Positions 11,416-56,775 of a DNA stretch of 64,000 nucleotides are shown here, one piece after another. Both the position numbers and the translations under genes were made by a program. The stretch is from Patescibacteria group bacterium (GTDB lineage: Bacteria; Patescibacteriota; Patescibacteriia; UBA11705; DATKZF01). The stretch is from assembly GCA_049319825.1 (NCBI GenBank), contig JBMORT010000009.1:67349-131348 (forward strand). The letters are read 5' to 3'. Numbering within the stretch: position 1 is the stretch's first letter; the number at the start of each line of letters is the position of its first letter. The notes beneath the pieces are model-generated. The model saw only the letters and a list, made by a program, of their open reading frames with translations. It was not told the DNA's origin and ran no database searches.

Positions 11416-12282
11416 ATGTTATTTGATAAAATAATTATGGATAATCAAGTCACTGCCACAAAAATCGCTTTATTCAAAGGTAAAGAGATAAGAAAGACGC
11501 TTTTCGAGAATGAATGGTGGTTTTCGGTTATAGATATCGTAGAAGCACTTACAGATAGCGTAAAACCACGTGTTTATTGGAATGCGATGAAAACAAGGGT
11601 AAAAAGCGATGATGGAATTGAGTTGTCTACAATTTGTAGACAACTGAAATTGGAATCCGCTGACGGAAAATGGTACGAAACCGACTGTGCCAATACTGAA
11701 GGCATTTTCCGCATAATTCAGTCGATTCCTTCCCCCAAAGCTGAACCGTTTAAGCGCTGGCTGGCAAAAGTCGGATATGAACGCGTTCAGGAAGTTGAAA
11801 ATCCGGAACTGGCCACCAAGCGCACCAGAATGCTCTATAAACTCAAAGGTTATTCCGATGACTGGATTGAAAAGAGAATGCGCGGCATCGCGATTAGAGA
11901 AGAGCTGACTGGCGAGTGGCGACAGCGAGGAGCGAGAGAGAAAAAAGATTATGAAATTCTTACCGCGGAAATTTCTCAAGCGACGTTTGGCATGACTCCA
12001 AATGAATATAAGAAGCTTAAAGGACTGGAAAGAGAAAATTTGCGGGATCACATGGATGATCTTGAGTTGATTTTCACGATGCTCGGAGAAAGGTCAACGA
12101 CGGAAATTCATCGCGCCAAAGATACGAAAGGAATAAAAAAATTAAAAGATGACGCCAAAGTCGGCGGGCAAATAGCGGGAAACGCGAGAAAAGAGCTGGA
12201 GAAAAAGATAAAAAGACCGATTTCCTCGAAAAACAATTATTTGGAAAAACCTGAAAATAAAAAATTATTATCGGACGCCTAA
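11416..12282 (+). CDS. Bro-N domain protein
   Basis: N-terminal FENEWWFSVIDIVEAL (Bro-N/KilA-N-like signature); charged C-terminal half. Confidence 0.65.
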   Translation: MLFDKIIMDNQVTATKIALFKGKEIRKTLFENEWWFSVIDIVEALTDSVKPRVYWNAMKTRVKSDDGIELSTICRQLKLESADGKWYETDCANTEGIFRIIQSIPSPKAEPFKRWLAKVGYERVQEVENPELATKRTRMLYKLKGYSDDWIEKRMRGIAIREELTGEWRQRGAREKKDYEILTAEISQATFGMTPNEYKKLKGLERENLRDHMDDLELIFTMLGERSTTEIHRAKDTKGIKKLKDDAKVGGQIAGNARKELEKKIKRPISSKNNYLEKPENKKLLSDA

Positions 12283-20077: not shown

Positions 20078-20329
20078 ATGATAAATAATATTGAAGCTGT
20101 CACAAAAATAGCGATCTTCAAAGGTCAAGGGATTAGAAAAACTATTCATAATAATGAATGGTGGTTTTCTGTTGTTGATATAATTGCAGTTTTAACAGAC
20201 AGTGTGAATCCTCGTGATTATTGGTATAAAATGAAAGTTCGCGTAAAAAATGAAGACGGTGTTGAGTTGTCGACAAATTGTCGACAACTGAAACTTGAAT
20301 CATCAGATGGAAAAAGAAAGCGGCAATAA
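20078..20329 (+). CDS. Bro-N domain fragment (truncated paralog of 11416-12282)
   Basis: 83 aa, about 65% identical to the N-terminus of the 11416 protein (NNEWWFSVVDIIAVLTDSVNPRDYW...); the ORF stops where the paralog continues. Confidence 0.55.
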   Translation: MINNIEAVTKIAIFKGQGIRKTIHNNEWWFSVVDIIAVLTDSVNPRDYWYKMKVRVKNEDGVELSTNCRQLKLESSDGKRKRQ

Positions 20330-48865: not shown

Positions 48866-49675
48866 ATGACTGGGGCCAGGAAAGTGCCGTTTGCGCACCA
48901 AGACACCCAGCCTCCGGAAGAAATTTCAGCAGCGGCAGTGGAGGCTGGTGTGCGACACCGATCATCGAGACTTCTTGTTTTGGGACAAATCGCCTTTGAA
49001 GTGGCACATCAGCTCAATAATTGTCTCACCGGAATTTGTGGCGGCTTATATTGTTTGGAATCGGAAGCGGCAGATCCGCTTCTCAGGCAAGAATTGCGAT
49101 TTCTCAAGGAATCGGCTGAGAGAGCAATCAATTTGACTCAGGGAATCAATGAATTTGGACGGAAAAAAACGCAAACGTCAAAGCTGATTGACGTAAATGC
49201 GGTGATTTCCGATGTGATCAGATTTTTCCGGCAAATTTTCGCTGAATCAATAATGCTGAGCTATACGGTTGATGGCCAATTCACCATTTGGGCTGATCAA
49301 TGCCAGATCTTTGAAATGATGCTGAATATTTTGATCAACGCCTATGACGCTGTCCGGAATAATCAGGAAAAAAACAGGCAAATTTCGATTCATGTCAGCG
49401 CTTTGAGGCTGGAAAGAGGTTTGATTAATTCTCCCCGCAGTCGCGAAGGCAATTTTGTGAAAATTGCCATCTCGGATAATGGTTGCGGAATTTCAAAGGA
49501 AGATTTGCCTAAAATATTCGACGCATATTTTACCACCAAGGGAGATTTTGGTAGCGGGCTTGGCCTCAAAATCGTCAAAGAAATTATCGAGACTCATCAT
49601 GGCTGGATTGATGCGGAGAGCGATCCTGATGAGGGAACCACTTTTTCCGTGTTTTTCCCTGCGGAAATTCGATGA
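48866..49675 (+). CDS. cytoplasmic sensor histidine kinase (HisKA + HATPase_c, no sensor domain)
   Basis: H-box EVAHQLNNCLTGI; N, G1, G2 boxes (DNGCGI, GSGLGL); AAGGAGGG RBS. Confidence 0.85.
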   Translation: MTGARKVPFAHQDTQPPEEISAAAVEAGVRHRSSRLLVLGQIAFEVAHQLNNCLTGICGGLYCLESEAADPLLRQELRFLKESAERAINLTQGINEFGRKKTQTSKLIDVNAVISDVIRFFRQIFAESIMLSYTVDGQFTIWADQCQIFEMMLNILINAYDAVRNNQEKNRQISIHVSALRLERGLINSPRSREGNFVKIAISDNGCGISKEDLPKIFDAYFTTKGDFGSGLGLKIVKEIIETHHGWIDAESDPDEGTTFSVFFPAEIR

Positions 49676-49677
49676 AA

Positions 49678-49704
49678 GGTGTTTATTCAATAAACACCTT
49701 TTAT
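49678..49704 (+). terminator. hairpin/terminator between histidine kinase and HypF-like gene
   Basis: ggtgtttat-tca-ataaacacc 9-bp stem plus TTTTAT. Confidence 0.45.
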
Positions 49705-49716
49705 ATTTGGGTCAAT

Positions 49717-50886
49717 ATGCTAATATTTAAAGATATGAGGGAATATTCGCTAAATTTACCTCGGCAGTCGCGAGTTTTATGTTTGGGAGCGGAATCTGCC
49801 GGAAATTTTACCGTATATGAGAATGGTCAAGCTTATTTTTTTTCTGATTTTGGTGATTTGCTCGATGATAAAAATTTCAATGCATATCAAGAGGCATTGT
49901 TTGGATTTTTTGGAAAAAGAAATTTTGTGCCAGATGTTATTACTGTAGATTTGCACCCTGATTTTAAAACGTCAAAATTAGGCATGGAATTGGCTCAAAA
50001 ATTTGGTTGCAGACTTGAAAAAGTGCAGCACCATGCGGCGCATATCTATTCGGTGTTGTTTGACCATATTCGGGCTTCTCAAACTCAAACTCTGCCTCGA
50101 AATTTTGTTGGAATTGCAGGCGATGGTACAGGGTATGGTCTTGATGGGAAAATCTGGGGTGGAGAAGTGTTTTTATATAGGCAGGAGGCAATAGGTCAGC
50201 CTTCGCCTCATGGGCTTCGGCTGACAGGCAGTAGGCCAGAGGTGCGGATAGGACATTTGGAGAATCAATTGCTTTGTGGGGGAGATTTGGCCATTAAAGA
50301 ACCGGCCCGAATGCTTCTTTCCATACTTTTAGGTATAAAAAAGCCGGCAGAGCTCTGGCCCTTTTTTAGCGCATTTTATGCTGAACAACAGTTTAATGTT
50401 CTTGCAAAAATGCGTGAACAAAAATTTAATTCAGTCGAAACTTCGAGCACAGGCAGGGTACTTGATGCGGCTTCACTGCTGCTCGGATTTTGCGGCAATA
50501 AAAGAGCGTATAAACATGAGCCCATTGATTTATTGGAGAAAAATTCGACAGAACCATTCATTTTGAAACCTCAAATAGAAAAGCAAGATGAATACGTATT
50601 GAACACAACATGGCTGTTTCAATGGATGTTGGATAACTTGGATAAAGATAAGGGCAGATTGGCTGCTACAGTTCAGAAATATATTATTGAGGGTTTAATT
50701 GAAATTGCCGGAAAAGTGAATCCTGATTTGCCGATTTATTTTGGCGGCGGAATGGCTAATAATAAAATAATGAGCCAAATTGCCGAAGAAAATGGGGTAA
50801 TTATGGCTAAAAATATTGAAAGAGGGGATAATTCATTGAGTTTGGGGCAATTGATGTATTGCTTATGGTGTGACAAGCTTTCTTAG
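49717..50886 (+). CDS. stand-alone HypF C-terminal (Kae1/TsaD-like carbamoyltransferase) domain protein
   Basis: VLCLGAESAGNF (start of HypF Kae1-like domain), VQHHAAHI, GIAGDGTGYGLDGKIWGGEVF; lacks acylphosphatase, Zn-finger and YrdC domains. Confidence 0.65.
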   Translation: MLIFKDMREYSLNLPRQSRVLCLGAESAGNFTVYENGQAYFFSDFGDLLDDKNFNAYQEALFGFFGKRNFVPDVITVDLHPDFKTSKLGMELAQKFGCRLEKVQHHAAHIYSVLFDHIRASQTQTLPRNFVGIAGDGTGYGLDGKIWGGEVFLYRQEAIGQPSPHGLRLTGSRPEVRIGHLENQLLCGGDLAIKEPARMLLSILLGIKKPAELWPFFSAFYAEQQFNVLAKMREQKFNSVETSSTGRVLDAASLLLGFCGNKRAYKHEPIDLLEKNSTEPFILKPQIEKQDEYVLNTTWLFQWMLDNLDKDKGRLAATVQKYIIEGLIEIAGKVNPDLPIYFGGGMANNKIMSQIAEENGVIMAKNIERGDNSLSLGQLMYCLWCDKLS

Positions 50887-50999
50887 CACCGCGTCGAGCG
50901 CTACTCCGGTTTGTGGAGATAGTTACCAAAACCTCGGTAAAATCGCGCTATATGCGATTTTTTTATTATAAAAGCCGAAGAGCGATCTTCGGCTATGGA

Positions 51000-51480
51000 A
51001 GTGAGAGACACGCGGGTCCGCGTTTCAAACATCCCGATCTTCGTCTCCCAAACTTGATTCAAAGGATGCGGCGGACAACGACCGGATCATTAAAGACAGC
51101 ATTTTCATCGTCCGCCGCCAGGGGTGAGGGAAAACACGCTGGCAATCGTTTGCGACACCTCGTACTTCGTTTCCCCTCTTCACGGTTTACGATCGCGGAT
51201 CGTGTAGGAACACAAAATTTTGTGTTCCTACATGCCCGGCAAAGCCGGGCCAAACCGTGAAGAGGGGCCGAAGCGAGGTGCGCTTCGGCCGGAGGCAGAC
51301 AAAGGGTCGTACGTTAAATACAACTCCCCGTCCGTCTGCCTAAAGGAATTGGGAGACACATGAACACGCGTCGTCAAACAACCCACCCCTCGTCTCCCAA
51401 ACTTCATTCAAAGGATGCGGCGGACATCTACATCTTCGTGTTGAAACAGATCAAGATTCGTCCGCCGCCTCATTTTTATA
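51000..51480. repeat. GC-rich palindrome-dense element with two direct motif-plus-hairpin copies (possible IS200/IS605-derived non-autonomous element or structured ncRNA)
   Basis: tcgtctcccaaactt[g/c]attcaaaggatgcggcggaca at about 51040 and 51396, each followed by a GCGGCGGAC...GTCCGCCGC hairpin; central 15-bp stem (cccctcttcacggttt/aaaccgtgaagagggg) encloses three perfect hairpins. Confidence 0.4.
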
Positions 51481-51547
51481 TCATAAAATAAAAAACATGT
51501 CAAGGCGGCATGCTCTTTGTATATTTAATTTTAGCGAAAATTTCGAT

Positions 51548-52273
51548 TTATTTATGCTTTTTTCCTAAAAATTTCTTTATTAAGCCATCAATACACTCAT
51601 TTTTTTTCCATTCTTTAGCCATGGCTTGATATAATTTCTCACAGCCCGCGTACGGCTTGATATTATTTTTGGCTTTAAAAATCGCTTTATACGGCTGCCA
51701 GTTTTCGATTACTGTATTAAAAGTCTCAGCCACTTGCCATAAATATTTTGGACTTTTGCCTTTGAATTTATCGCGCTCTTTAATGCCGTAATTTTTTTCA
51801 ATAAAATCGTAGAAAATAAAATGCAGCATTTCATGGCCCACTGTTGACAGCGGATCAAATTTTTTTCGCGAATAGGGGAAATAAAATATTTTGTCCTTAA
51901 TATCTCGCGGGAACATATTGAAAATCGAGGCATAGCCTATATATTTGCCTTTGGGCCAAGGGTGATTTCCAAATATTTTATTCACCAAATTAAAAAATTT
52001 ATTTTCTATTTTTCCCCAGCGCTGCTTGGTCTGCTCGACTCCACGCGCAATGGCTTGCGCATTTGCCTGATAAAAATTTTTGGCGTATTTTGAAATTATA
52101 AGATGTTTTTCTTTTAATGAAAATTTCTTGTCATTTATAAATAAAATTTCCTTGGGCAAAAACAAATCAACAAATTCACCGTTTTTAATGAACCATTTGG
52201 CGTTTTCAATGTCAGACCGAGCGCTTATTTGAAATTTTATTTTGGGTTTGGCTGATTTTTTCATATTAAACAA
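51548..52273 (-). CDS. hypothetical protein with HExxH motif (putative zincin-like)
   Basis: STVGHEMLHFIF; no other family signal. Confidence 0.5.
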   Translation of the reverse strand: MFNMKKSAKPKIKFQISARSDIENAKWFIKNGEFVDLFLPKEILFINDKKFSLKEKHLIISKYAKNFYQANAQAIARGVEQTKQRWGKIENKFFNLVNKIFGNHPWPKGKYIGYASIFNMFPRDIKDKIFYFPYSRKKFDPLSTVGHEMLHFIFYDFIEKNYGIKERDKFKGKSPKYLWQVAETFNTVIENWQPYKAIFKAKNNIKPYAGCEKLYQAMAKEWKKNECIDGLIKKFLGKKHK

Positions 52274-52363
52274 AGTTCTATACTACGGATTGCTCCAAAT
52301 ACTACGACATGCTGAATATAAATTTGTTTTCGTAGTATTCGTAGATTTTTTGTAGATTCGTAG

Positions 52364-52579
52364 TTAACAAATCCTCGGAATCAATTTGCCTTTCGGCTCC
52401 TCAATCCTTCTTTCCGAACCAAGCATTGTCTTCAAAAAGACACCTTCGCCTTCAACGCATTTTCCAATAACTTTGGCTTCAGGATTAAATTCTTGAAGTT
52501 TTTTTAACGCTTCATCAGTGTTTTCCGGACTGACCGCGGCGATAATGATTGCTAAAATGACGATGATTGGGATTAACAA
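52364..52579 (-). pseudogene. duplicated 3' fragment of hypE
   Basis: encodes ...AVSPENTDEALKKLQEFNPEAKVIGKC..GEGVFLKTMLGSERRIEEPKGKLIPRIC, near-identical to the C-terminus of hypE at 54219-55187. Confidence 0.6.
52371..52545. repeat. ~175-bp direct repeat, copy 1 (hypE 3' end)
   Basis: near-identical to 54226-54400 apart from a 9-nt divergent patch. Confidence 0.8.
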
Positions 52580-52595
52580 TTTGTTTTTCTTAGTA

Positions 52596-53303
52596 TTATT
52601 TAATTATATAGATGACATGTCGCATACTTATAATGCATTTGTTGCCGCCGCATTTGGTTGTCAGATCATTAATTATTTTTTGTTTATTTTCTTGATAGAA
52701 TTTTCTTTGTCCTGGGTGCTGAAAAAAGAATTTCAAAATTTCATACATTTCCAGCTCGTCTTTGGCGAAAATTTGCGAAATAAATTTCTTTTCTTTGTGA
52801 TTAAATTTGTTTCTTGATAAATAATCAAACATTTCAGGATACCCGCTGTATTTTTTTACTTTGGTATTGAAATTAAAAAACGGATTATCATGCTTATTTT
52901 TTGAATATTCATCAATGATAACTATCATTCCGTCGGGATTGAGAAAAGATTTCGCTTTTTTAAAAAATGAATCCCATTTTTCATAAGGAATTTCCCATAA
53001 AACATATGCGGCTAAAATAATATCGAATTTTTCCTTAGCTTCAAATTTCAGAAAGTCATTTTTGATGAATTTTACTTTTGAATTCTTTTTAATTTCATCC
53101 TTTAATCTGTCTTCGATGTCAAGCAAGAGGATTCTTTTGAAATTAGAAATTATTGGCTGAATTATTTCTCCGGTACCGCAACCAATGTCCAAAATAGAAT
53201 CAAATTTTTGATTATTAAATAACCTTATTAGTTCGGATTTTATCATTTCTTTCTCGTTCGTGTGGGCAAGAAATTGGTTAAATAGGTCAGTATAATTTCG
53301 CAT
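52596..53303 (-). CDS. class I SAM-dependent methyltransferase
   Basis: ILDIGCGTGEI motif I. Confidence 0.75.
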   Translation of the reverse strand: MRNYTDLFNQFLAHTNEKEMIKSELIRLFNNQKFDSILDIGCGTGEIIQPIISNFKRILLLDIEDRLKDEIKKNSKVKFIKNDFLKFEAKEKFDIILAAYVLWEIPYEKWDSFFKKAKSFLNPDGMIVIIDEYSKNKHDNPFFNFNTKVKKYSGYPEMFDYLSRNKFNHKEKKFISQIFAKDELEMYEILKFFFQHPGQRKFYQENKQKIINDLTTKCGGNKCIISMRHVIYIIK

Positions 53304-53347
53304 AAAATTTCTAGCAAATACTAGGAATCAATTTTCCCTTCGGCTCT

Positions 53348-54178
53348 TTACTGTGTCGGTTGAGAAACGCGCTCAGGAATTTTACTTGTATATGCTGACG
53401 GCTCTTTATTAATGCATTGTTCTTTCATTGACTCACCGGCTGTGTCCGGCTCGTCAACCATGTCATCACAAAGCCATCTGGATGTCTTGCCTGTTTGTTT
53501 ATCATACATGGCATTCCAAATACATACATTTCTTTCTCTCTCCCAGCCATCGCCGTAATCAGCGCTGTTGATTTTAAGGCATGAAGTCTGGTTCTTAGTC
53601 CTTAAGACAATATCGCTGATGCAAAATTTAACCGATCTTGAATACTTTGAATGATCAGATTCGTCAGTTTGTATTTGGTAGCATTTCGTGACATCTAAAT
53701 TTGCCAACGCTTCGCATTTTATGTTTAAACTATTATATGGAATTTTGGCGCAGAAATTTGTGTCGGAATAAACTTCTGCCATATAGGTGCTACAATATGT
53801 CCCATCAATATCCGAAATTTTATATAAAGATTCGCATGCCACTTTGTCATTTGTGTTTTGATAGTACTTGATCAAGCAATCCGTCCTGGGATATATATTT
53901 GTAATGCTATCATCTTCCCATATGATTTTCGGGTGATACTCGCATTTTTCATCTTCGCAAAAATAATAGGTTGTTTCAATTGGTAATTCTTCGCAGATAC
54001 TTACGTCATGAGCCGCTATCGCTTGCGCGGCAGTTGAGTCCATTAAATTAGTAATTTCTTCACTGGAGTATTCAGGCCGAGTTTTTACGGAGTCTCTCAC
54101 ATTGGGCATGGGAGAAGAACAACTGGATAAAAAAAATGTGATTAAAATTAAAAATATTAATGTTGAAAAAAATTTCAT
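53348..54178 (-). CDS. Cys-rich secreted lipoprotein
   Basis: lipobox LSSC; about 18 Cys in the mature part. Confidence 0.6.
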   Translation of the reverse strand: MKFFSTLIFLILITFFLSSCSSPMPNVRDSVKTRPEYSSEEITNLMDSTAAQAIAAHDVSICEELPIETTYYFCEDEKCEYHPKIIWEDDSITNIYPRTDCLIKYYQNTNDKVACESLYKISDIDGTYCSTYMAEVYSDTNFCAKIPYNSLNIKCEALANLDVTKCYQIQTDESDHSKYSRSVKFCISDIVLRTKNQTSCLKINSADYGDGWERERNVCIWNAMYDKQTGKTSRWLCDDMVDEPDTAGESMKEQCINKEPSAYTSKIPERVSQPTQ

Positions 54179-54218
54179 AGGTTTTTTGATAATGATTTAT
54201 CTAAAAATTTCGACTCAA

Positions 54219-56275: not shown

Positions 56276-56775
56276 GCGTTAATTTGCGTTATACGAGTGT
56301 TATATGGCGTTATAAAGCGTTGATTTGTATTATTTGGTGGCATTTTTAAGTCTGTTTAATACAACGTTTATTAATCCATTTAAAATTGACTGGACCTTAT
56401 TTGCTTGAAACATGTAATCATCAAATGTATCTTTGTCAATATAACTGACTCTGTAACCAATATGCAGGTCATTTATAACTTCATTCAAACAACCTTTGGC
56501 GATTCCATAAAATCTTAAATTTTCTTTATAGAAATACCTGCCGAATCCTTCCGCAATGTTCGCGCCAACTCCACGCGCGCTTTCGCGCAGATGCTTTACC
56601 AAATTGTATTTTTCCGATTCGGGAAGGGTATTTGTCAATTTGTAAATCATTTCGCAAAAAACCATTGATTCTCTCCACGCATCCAGATCTTCTATATTTT
56701 GTATTTTCATAAAATTAATAACTCGTTCCAACGCAATATAACATTTAAATAACGCCAAATAACGTCAAATAACGC
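56276..56775. mobile_element. 4HB-gene cassette flanked by inverted arrays of GCGTTAT/ATAACGC heptamers, inserted between hypD and hypC
   Basis: left flank gcgttaatttGCGTTATacgagtGTTATatgGCGTTATaaaGCGTTgattt; right flank aATAACAtttaaATAACGCcaaATAACGtcaaATAACGC (reverse-complement orientation). Confidence 0.35.
56330..56710 (-). CDS. four-helix-bundle protein
   Basis: MKIQNIEDLDAWRES...LRESARGVGANIAEGFGR signature; the ORF-track N-terminal extension reads through the flank repeat. Confidence 0.7.
   Translation of the reverse strand: MKIQNIEDLDAWRESMVFCEMIYKLTNTLPESEKYNLVKHLRESARGVGANIAEGFGRYFYKENLRFYGIAKGCLNEVINDLHIGYRVSYIDKDTFDDYMFQANKVQSILNGLINVVLNRLKNATK

Follow-up and report, generated by a model that had tools for sequence, protein, structure and literature searches.

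What is the GC-rich, hairpin-dense stretch that separates two convergent genes in the genome of a Patescibacteria group bacterium (assembly GCA_049319825.1, contig JBMORT010000009.1)? We analyzed it within 64 kb of that contig (positions 67,349 to 131,348, hereafter the window; coordinates are positions in the window). The stretch, which we will call the element, lies between a HypF_C-like gene (plus strand, 49672-50886) and a gene for a HExxH protein of 241 amino acids (minus strand, 51548-52273), which is upstream of the element on the minus strand. An earlier note, made from the sequence alone, suggested that the element may be a non-autonomous transposable element of the IS200/IS605 family and mentioned a structured non-coding RNA (ncRNA) as an alternative. 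We favor the alternative, with a probability of roughly 0.55: the element would be a single-copy, separately transcribed ncRNA gene of about 500 nt, running on the minus strand from a promoter at 51503-51475 to a terminator at 50994-50960.

The sequence features that the note described were all recovered with a repeat finder and a search for inverted repeats. The element is indeed more GC-rich than its flanks: its GC content is 53.8%, whereas the kilobases on either side have 41.8% and 33.3% and the window as a whole has 42.8% (although similar values are also reached in many coding stretches of the window). Relative to dinucleotide shuffles, its folding z-scores are -10.0 for the minus strand and -9.4 for the plus strand. 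The minus strand folds better than the plus strand: its predicted fold has 170 pairs, including 16 G.U pairs, at -225.9 kcal/mol, versus 157 pairs, including 2 G.U pairs, at -199.9 kcal/mol. The strand-specific G.U pairs are located in two repeated modules and in hairpin H6 (Table 1). Mis-assembly is argued against by a Logan assembly (L001) that is 100% identical to the element over 521 nt, which was possibly built from the same reads.

The element appears to have transcription signals of its own. At its upstream edge on the minus strand is a promoter-like site of the sigma-70 type with a perfect -35 box and an extended -10 box. The predicted transcription start, at about 51467-51469, coincides with the base of the first hairpin. 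Sites with a perfect TTGACA and at least five matching positions out of six in the -10 hexamer are few: there are seven in 128 kb (both strands together), this one included, and one of the others is the promoter of a tRNA-Asn gene. (The automated promoter scan requires a T at the last position of the -10 hexamer and missed the site at 51503-51475 for that reason alone.) At the downstream edge is an intrinsic terminator, and there is no minus-strand gene between the promoter-like site and the terminator. Just beyond it, and outside the element, the convergent HypF_C-like gene has its own terminator-like hairpin, which forms the left boundary of the element.

The element does not seem to encode a protein. 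As the note suspected, the 115-aa open reading frame that is predicted over it is spurious: searches of 5.8 billion and of 1.84 billion proteins gave no true homologue of it, and no frame is conserved in the related element that we describe below. (The two matches among the 1.84 billion representatives are repetitive proteins that are unrelated to the element.) We also rejected a TTG-initiated frame that is common to both modules. The differences between its two copies are mostly conservative, but it lacks a Shine-Dalgarno sequence and is not kept in the related element, where it is broken by stops and frame shifts. More broadly, tblastx found no reading frame that is conserved between the two elements, as the matches contain stop codons and change frame.

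Table 1. Features of the element and its left boundary, in order along the minus strand. Bit scores are for R1, the covariance model of the window's two modules, and R2, the model of the H2 hairpin.
Feature	Position	Strand	Details
Promoter-like site	51475..51503	-	-35 TTGACA at 51503-51498; 17-nt spacer; extended TG at 51483-51482; -10 TATAAA at 51480-51475
Module A (5' copy)	51343..51472	-	R1 157 bits; R2 65.5 bits
H1a (module A)	51417-51468	-	stem GCGGCGGAC/GUCCGCCGC
Linker (module A)	51399-51416	-
H2a (module A)	~51349-51400	-	GGGAGAC/GUCUCCC
Hairpin H6	51293..51341	-	AGGCAGACGGA../..UUUGUCUGCCU; two G.U pairs valid on the minus strand only
Hairpin Hx	51266..51290	-	GGCCGAAGCG-CACCU-CGCUUCGGCC; putative terminator-hairpin relic without U tract
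Four-way junction ("cloverleaf")	51173..51267	-	16-bp perfect closing stem, 51252-51267 / 51173-51188
Junction hairpin c1	51234-51250	-
Junction hairpin c2 (contains the REP)	51203-51232	-
"Double-foot" REP	51204..51231	.	GTAG-GAACAC-AAAATTTT-GTGTTC-CTAC; multi-copy cross-phylum family, RAYT/TnpA_REP-associated
Junction hairpin c3	51190-51202	-
Hairpin H5 and conserved single strand	51119..51176	-	GGGAA..UUCCC, then CCCUCACCC (51122-51130)
Module B (3' copy)	50995..51122	-	R1 147 bits; R2 64.5 bits; corresponds to L141:2415-2540
H1b (module B)	51068-51118	-
Linker (module B)	51050-51067	-
H2b (module B)	~50997-51053	-	GGGAGAC/GUCUCUC, one G.U
Intrinsic terminator	50960..50994	-	AGCCGAAGA-UCGC-UCUUCGGCU then UUUUAUAAUAAAAA; hairpin 50994-50973 plus U tract
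Terminator-like hairpin and T run of the HypF_C-like gene	50939..50971	+	outside the element; its left boundary

We found a counterpart of the element at the same locus in a related lineage of Patescibacteria (locus L141, which is identical to L140; the two come from two samples). Homologues of the HypF_C-like gene at 59-64% identity keep a common gene order: histidine kinase, HypF_C, a variable stretch, and then HypE, HypD, and HypC on the opposite strand. In L141, whose HypF is 63% identical to the window's at the amino acid level, the gap of 545 bp between HypF_C and HypE holds a related element, directly behind HypF_C and convergent to it. R1, which was built from the window's two modules alone, scores 45 bits against its minus strand (E = 3.5e-12; Table 1). 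The minus strand of the L141 element also has a promoter-like site (TTGACA-17-TGaTAAAAA, with a different spacer sequence) and a 10-bp terminator with a U tract, and its folding z-score is -10.7. In a MAFFT alignment, the mean column identity of the 3' two-thirds of the two elements is 77%, as compared to 70% nucleotide identity for the adjacent HypF gene. The element has diverged about as much as its neighbor, which is what would be expected from vertical descent.

Reading along the minus strand, both elements contain, in the same order, the promoter-like site, a 5' module with hairpins H1 and H2, the four-way junction, H5 followed by the single-stranded CCCUCACCC, a 3' module (H1, linker, and H2), and the terminator. 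GTTCCCTCACCC is invariant between the two elements, and the H2 model matches the H5 region weakly (20 bits). The junction is the center of what the note described as a closing stem around three perfect hairpins, followed by a further 10-bp hairpin. We found the same features, except that the closing stem is 16 bp long rather than 15; the 10-bp hairpin is Hx. The central hairpins include GCCCGGC-AAA-GCCGGGC and CGATC-GCG-GATCG, and the 28-nt palindrome that the note reported forms the middle arm, c2, within a perfect palindrome of 30 nt. The closing stem, c1, and c3 are kept in L141 with three compensatory pair changes. In place of c2, L141 has an unrelated hairpin of similar size (UGUCCGCCCA..UGGGCGGACA) and hence no such palindrome, so the middle arm of the junction seems to tolerate replacement.

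The substitutions between the two elements preserve the structure. In the MAFFT alignment, with pairs from RNAalifold, all 38 of 38 pairs in four helices can form in both sequences; five of these have changed in both partners and another two in one partner only. The double changes are U-A to C-G in the closing stem, C-G to G-C twice in c1, and G-C to A-U twice in H1. As a control, we slid the 3' partners by 1-3 columns, after which only 43-50% of the cells could pair and there were 0-1 double changes. A hand count over nine helices with 74 pairs gave 62 identical pairs, 4 one-sided changes, 6 compensatory changes, and 2 broken pairs. The note had argued that an ncRNA would be favored over a mobile element by a single-copy occurrence with conserved synteny and covariation. 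We see all three, the element being apparently single-copy in the sequence that we examined. Together with a promoter and a terminator of its own and the lack of a conserved open reading frame, the compensatory changes between the two sequences are what one would look for in a stand-alone ncRNA gene. The ncRNA that the note mentioned second is thus the reading that we prefer, given the element's own signals, its conserved locus, and these changes in two sequences; we infer transcription from the signals.

Could the element instead be a structure that serves the convergent gene pair in cis, such as a long 3' untranslated region, a bidirectional terminator, or an insulator, and that prevents read-through between HypF_C and the genes on the minus strand? 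It lies exactly between the convergent genes, its left edge has back-to-back terminators (one per strand: plus, 50939-50971; minus, 50960-50994), and the upstream HExxH gene has only a weak hairpin of its own ahead of the element. However, the minus-strand gene that is upstream of the element encodes the HExxH protein in the window but HypE in L141, and in both genomes a perfect -35 box and an extended -10 box lie between that gene and the element. Also, a conserved multi-helix structure of about 450-500 nt far exceeds what termination needs, and in a more distant relative (L144), HypF and HypE abut without any spacer. We consider a cis element to be improbable. We also rejected a link between the element and the HExxH gene, as homologues of HExxH (at up to 58% identity) are found in other contexts without a large spacer.

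The ncRNA gene that we propose would contain two paralogous modules, and these are the direct repeats that led the note to suspect a transposon. The repeat finder reports a pair of 58-nt sequences (51025-51082 and 51374-51431) that are 86% identical and 349 nt apart, and the repeats stay in register over about 125-130 nt (50995-51122 and 51343-51472, or modules B and A). Their 29-nt core occurs twice in the window, versus 0 expected (100 shuffles). As the note stated, each copy has a hairpin with a conserved stem and a different loop: H1 has the stem GCGGCGGAC/GTCCGCCGC in both copies, and the loops are unrelated. Each copy also has a second hairpin, H2 (stem GGGAGAC/GTCTCYC), which is absent from the note's description, and an 18-nt linker joins H1 to H2. 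In all four copies of H2 (two in the window and two in L141) we find the motif GGGAGAC(R)A .. UGUU(Y) .. AAC .. GUGUCUC. R2 scores these four copies at 51-66 bits and has weak matches (15-24 bits) to H1, H5, and H6 of the same elements, so the RNA resembles a chain of ~57-nt hairpin units. We also noticed a possible contact of 4-5 bp between the linker (CAUCC) and the loop of H2 (GGAUG), with one compensatory change in L141 (CAUU:AGUG). Its register is ambiguous in module A, and we view it as a lead only.

The two modules differ at 39 of 130 aligned columns, and the differences are unevenly spread: just 1 falls within the 49 columns that cover the linker, the two arms of H1, and the 5' arm of H2, versus 38 in the other 81 columns (P = 4e-9, hypergeometric test). 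In the stems and the linker, the copies are 98% identical, and in the hairpin interiors and loops they have diverged by about 50%; in L141, however, conservation of this linker is only about 60%. Two binding sites that evolve in concert, or gene conversion over short tracts, might account for this pattern.

The comparison to L141 suggests where the direct repeats came from. In the window, a hairpin of the H6 type (CAGAC..GUCUG) follows the 5' module, and in L141 a homologous hairpin follows the 3' module. Similarly, Hx aligns with the L141 terminator (GGCCAAAGCG-CACAA-CGCUUUGG). That is, the 5' half of the window's element (module A, H6, and Hx) is collinear with the 3' half of the L141 element (module, H6, and terminator). 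The two modules of L141 are also unlike each other: the 5' one has GCCCCGC..GCGGGGC and then H2 directly. The direct repeats in the window would therefore stem from a lineage-specific segmental duplication of the ancestral 3' half, including its terminator hairpin, of which Hx would be the relic. Judging from this collinearity, the near-identical "ends" are an internal duplication and not the ends of a transposon.

Our search for other copies of the element covered the 64-kb window, some 1.3 Mb of loci that we fetched, and three collections (genome, metagenome, and viral) that we scanned with sequence patterns. R1 finds only the two modules in the window and has no match in about 0.85 Mb of the loci that had been fetched for other purposes. 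Across the window and the loci searched, R2 has no match outside of the two elements, and H1/H2 modules are confined to the window's element and its L141 counterpart. The exact pattern for the module core (CCTTTGAATNAAGTTTGGGAG) has 0 matches in the viral, genome, and metagenome collections, and a relaxed pattern has 0 matches in viral contigs. Another pattern, GTCCGCCGCATCCTTTG, gave five viral matches, which is about the number estimated by chance, and the module model did not confirm them. A blastn comparison to phages and plasmids gave no match to the element. Nor did we find a relative with these ends and a TnpA or TnpB gene in the window, the loci, or the three collections; the RAYT-bearing loci that we found carry the REP palindrome (described below) rather than the modules. 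(RAYT is short for REP-associated tyrosine transposase.)

The element does not match any family in Rfam either. With Rfam 15 (4,227 families) at gathering thresholds, the window's only matches are three tRNAs. Permissive scans of both elements gave sub-threshold matches, mostly to miRNA and snoRNA families and far below the gathering score, that we took to be chance, and there was no match to omega-RNA or HEARO. We also rejected several other kinds of structured elements. A retron, a diversity-generating retroelement, another RNA associated with a reverse transcriptase, or a type III antitoxin does not fit, as there is no adjacent reverse transcriptase or toxin gene and the differences between the repeats are not specific to adenines. 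For integron attC sites, we looked by eye at the feet of the hairpins in both modules and on both strands and saw no R''/R' core-site pair (RYYYAAC ... GTTRRRY).

These results bear on the note's preferred reading, that the element is a non-autonomous IS200/IS605 derivative (a palindrome-associated transposable element or a miniature inverted-repeat transposable element) whose two direct subterminal hairpins are the ends recognized by a Y1 transposase. H1a and H1b, each near one edge of the element, do share an identical 9-bp stem and point in the same direction. The identity of the modules is confined to the stems and the adjoining sequence, as if the two sites were read by one protein, and the element contains a repeat that is related to Y1 transposases. 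But there are no dispersed copies and no autonomous partner in the sequence searched, and, as the note had itself observed, there is no transposase: tblastn found no Y1 gene in the window. The L141 element is at the same locus, is as diverged as the flanking gene, and has two modules that are unlike each other. The 5' repeat runs on into a copy of H6 and the terminator hairpin, which implies a segmental duplication of the 3' half. Each H1 hairpin has a loop of 33-34 nt and is part of a 125-nt module with two hairpins, which is unlike the ends of IS200/IS605 elements. The AT-rich 15-mers that flank the element are not target-site duplications, as they coincide with the -10 region and with the U tract of the terminator. 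We think it very improbable that this is an IS200/IS605 derivative. There is a link to this superfamily of Y1 (HUH) enzymes, but it runs through the palindrome in the junction and not through the "ends."

That palindrome, GTAG-GAACACAAAATTTTGTGTTC-CTAC with the outer sequence GTAGGAACAC..GTGTTCCTAC, is a repetitive extragenic palindrome (REP), of a kind that is linked to a domesticated transposase of the IS200 type. When we scanned one genome per species for GTAGGAACAC-N(4-12)-GTGTTCCTAC, we found at least 116 stretches; the phyla among the matches listed include Bacteroidota, Chlorobiota, Patescibacteria, Saccharibacteria, Actinomycetota, Cyanobacteria, Chloroflexota, and others. Several metagenome-assembled genomes carry it on many contigs each: 8 or more for Marinilabiliaceae GMC4.concoct.52, and 7 or more for FCB M_MetaBat.192. 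The copies have unrelated flanks, and their inner stems and loops differ from one genome to the next but remain self-complementary. At 10 or more loci, a Y1 HUH gene is 0-20 nt from the palindrome or surrounds it, and at one of these (L086) the gene has a palindrome on both sides. The linked Y1 genes match PF01797 at 29 bits (the cut-off is 23) and NF047646 (REP_Tyr_transpos) with E = 1e-15, which is below the equivalog cut-off of 80 bits.

The palindrome also lies inside genes that resemble Y1 transposases, with the reading frame intact (L045:2730-2757, L095:4500-4527, L108:960-987, and L132:298-325, which include genomes of Patescibacteria/Paceibacterota); in L045, L095, and L108, its in-frame translation is VGTQ(N/D)FVFL. 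Quentin and colleagues (2018, PMC6006769) described "double-foot" REPs (5' GT[AG]G and 3' C[TC]AC) for subclass 2.4 of TnpA_REP, along with REP insertions within the tnpA_REP gene itself and the protein motifs NH[IFV]H, WQ, and YIxNNP. The Y1 gene in L108 has the matching motifs NHIH, WQ, and YIINNP. Because the form, the dispersal, and the association with Y1 genes all match this description, we assign the palindrome, from its sequence, to the known class of REPs of the RAYT/TnpA_REP subclass 2.4 kind (group 4 of the RAYTs of Bertels et al.). Like those REPs, it has a 5' GTAG, a fully paired stem, and a 3' CTAC; it is multi-copy across phyla; and it flanks Y1 genes or lies in frame within them. 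It differs in that the REP is only 28 of about 510 nt of the element, is present as a single copy in the window, without a RAYT gene there, and is an arm of a larger conserved structure, whereas in most other genomes it stands alone in an AT-rich spacer. A metagenome scan with the Patescibacteria variant of the REP gave three loci, none of which has the modules, and a literature search with the palindrome string returned only primer sequences.

The REP raises the possibility that the whole element is a cluster of palindromes at the DNA level, akin to bacterial interspersed mosaic elements (BIMEs). Hairpin units would have accumulated in a permissive gap between convergent genes, where a RAYT-type Y1 enzyme that acts on single-stranded DNA would use them as substrates or leave them as by-products, and any transcript would be incidental, or at most a terminator or a stabilizer of mRNA. 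The middle hairpin belongs to a double-foot REP family that is multi-copy in many phyla and found next to or inside genes like Y1_Tnp and REP_Tyr_transpos (PMC6006769). REPs are preferentially found in the gaps between convergent genes, and a REP cluster can contain units that are repeated in tandem along with adjacent DNA (Di Nocera et al. 2013, PMC3733652). The element's dense GC-rich hairpins, its REP, and its repeated units are all like those of known clusters.

Several observations along these lines weigh against an ncRNA gene. One arm of the element is a REP, and H2 shares parts (GAGAC..GTTTCAAAC..GTCTC) with a double-foot REP in a related locus, L011 (GTAGAGACAG-GTTTCAAAC-CTGTCTCTAC). 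The central rod has just 1 G.U pair in about 62, with perfect, strand-symmetric stems, so the junction resembles young DNA palindromes more than an old RNA. The covariation comes from two sequences and has no statistical power, so it is suggestive, and DNA palindromes, REPs included, keep their arms complementary too (PMC3733652). The two strands of the L141 element fold equally well (-190.8 versus -193.3 kcal/mol), and at one position of the closing stem L141 has C.A on the minus strand and U.G on the plus strand. Clusters of a closing stem, a double-foot REP, and one or two hairpins are also seen at unrelated sites: L011:6815-6915 (also in L012, L074, and L131), L009:5490-5580, and L130 near 2833-2905. 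Those in L011 and L009 are intergenic and have no obvious promoter of their own; all of these clusters are similar in design to the window's junction, with different closing sequences. Finally, the content of the site varies. Apart from L141, with its diverged counterpart, and L144, with its abutting genes, six members of the HypF clade (L009, L011, L013, L138, L142, and L143) have other cargo at the site and no element, so loss or mobility must be assumed.

On the other hand, H1, H2, H5, H6, c1, and c3 were found nowhere else in the 64 kb or in the related loci, which means that just 1 of about 10 hairpins belongs to a dispersed family; a BIME-like mosaic would consist of dispersed REP units, which typically alternate in orientation. 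Double-foot REPs are rare in this clade (about 1 per 20-60 kb), and the window lacks a RAYT gene. In contrast to BIMEs, the element has its own promoter and terminator, and in L141 the whole array, with both signals, is kept in order and in place without the REP. The outer parts have many G.U pairs that are valid on only one strand. We regard a DNA-level palindrome cluster as rather unlikely, and if it were nevertheless correct, the finding would be an ordinary REP-type palindrome cluster.

Some further observations concern the REP and its surroundings. GTAGGAACACAAAATTTTGTGTTCCTAC recurs in L011 and L012 at an unrelated intergenic site, and the L011 cluster has two abutting REPs (GTAGGAAC.. 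and GTAGAGAC..). In the first 50.9 kb of the window, the plus strand carries nearly all of the genes and the GC skew is about +0.1; beyond that, the strand changes and the skew is about 0. This change near 51 kb could be a replication-related boundary. Despite this change in orientation and skew, we rejected a replication terminus with a dif (Xer) site, as the 11+6+11 palindrome is the multi-copy REP.

In the neighborhood, the window's "HypF" is the C-terminal, Kae1-like half of that protein (PF17788 and PF22521, 404 aa), without a match to an N-terminal HypF domain, and the same is true throughout the clade. Upstream of the element on the minus strand, at about 51500-54200, is a block with a GC content of 27-34% (versus a window mean of 43%) that encodes the HExxH protein, an S-adenosylmethionine-dependent methyltransferase, and a cysteine-rich lipoprotein. 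It separates the element from HypE in the window and is absent from that place in L141, and HExxH and the methyltransferase are present in L011; the block is probably inserted or variable cargo. Genes of the 23S rRNA-intervening-sequence type (PF05635) recur among the hyp genes of the clade (L011, L138, L140, L143, and L144), with a candidate in the window at 56330-56758. In L009, directly behind HypF_C, is another candidate small RNA (11540-11740, plus strand) with TTGACA-17-TAAGTT and, over the next ~150 nt or so, a long GC-rich stem (GACGGGTGACGCGCG..CGCGCGTCACCCGTC) and a T run; its sequence is unrelated to the window's element. Elsewhere in the window, two near-identical perfect palindromes of 25 bp (AGTTGTCTACAATTTGTAGACAACT at 11621-11645 and AGTTGTCGACAAATTGTCGACAACT at 20265-20289) look like operator sites of a single regulator.

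If the element is an ncRNA gene, as we favor, then its product would have two paralogous modules (H1, linker, and H2) on either side of a four-way junction and H5, and its 5' half would be a segmental copy of the ancestral 3' half. The REP in the middle arm of the junction would be a secondary acquisition or replacement. The RNA would probably act as a scaffold or a decoy, and its two H2 hairpins (GGGAGACRA..UGUUY..AAC..GUGUCUC), whose core is invariant in the four copies, might be presented to a partner that is possibly dimeric.

The element appears to belong to a small family outside of Rfam, with two representatives in a narrow clade of Patescibacteria. It would be like the large structured ncRNAs OLE, GOLLD, ROOL, raiA, and HEARO in being several hundred nucleotides long, multi-helix, GC-rich relative to its surroundings, and stand-alone without an open reading frame, with internal repeats of modules. 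However, it matches none of these and no Rfam family, and its two representatives are from one clade. More tentatively, and with rather less than even confidence, we suggest that it represents an undescribed class of large (about 450-510 nt) Patescibacteria RNAs, made from a series of ~57-nt hairpin units that surround a four-way junction, whose hairpin arms are interchangeable with REPs or perhaps derived from them. Such an RNA gene would have been built from, or continually remodeled by, a domesticated single-strand-DNA transposase system.

There are also two practical lessons for the interpretation of such loci. Direct repeats of a motif plus a hairpin can stem from duplication within an RNA gene and need not be transposon ends, and a short palindrome within a larger structure may belong to an unrelated and widespread repeat family, so it should be analyzed separately. 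The genomes of Patescibacteria are tiny, and to our knowledge, few ncRNAs have been described from them. If the element does encode an RNA, then it would add a large structured ncRNA candidate for the candidate phyla radiation (Patescibacteria), and a REP that forms one of the helical arms of such a conserved RNA would tie the activity of REPs and RAYTs to the way in which RNA genes evolve.

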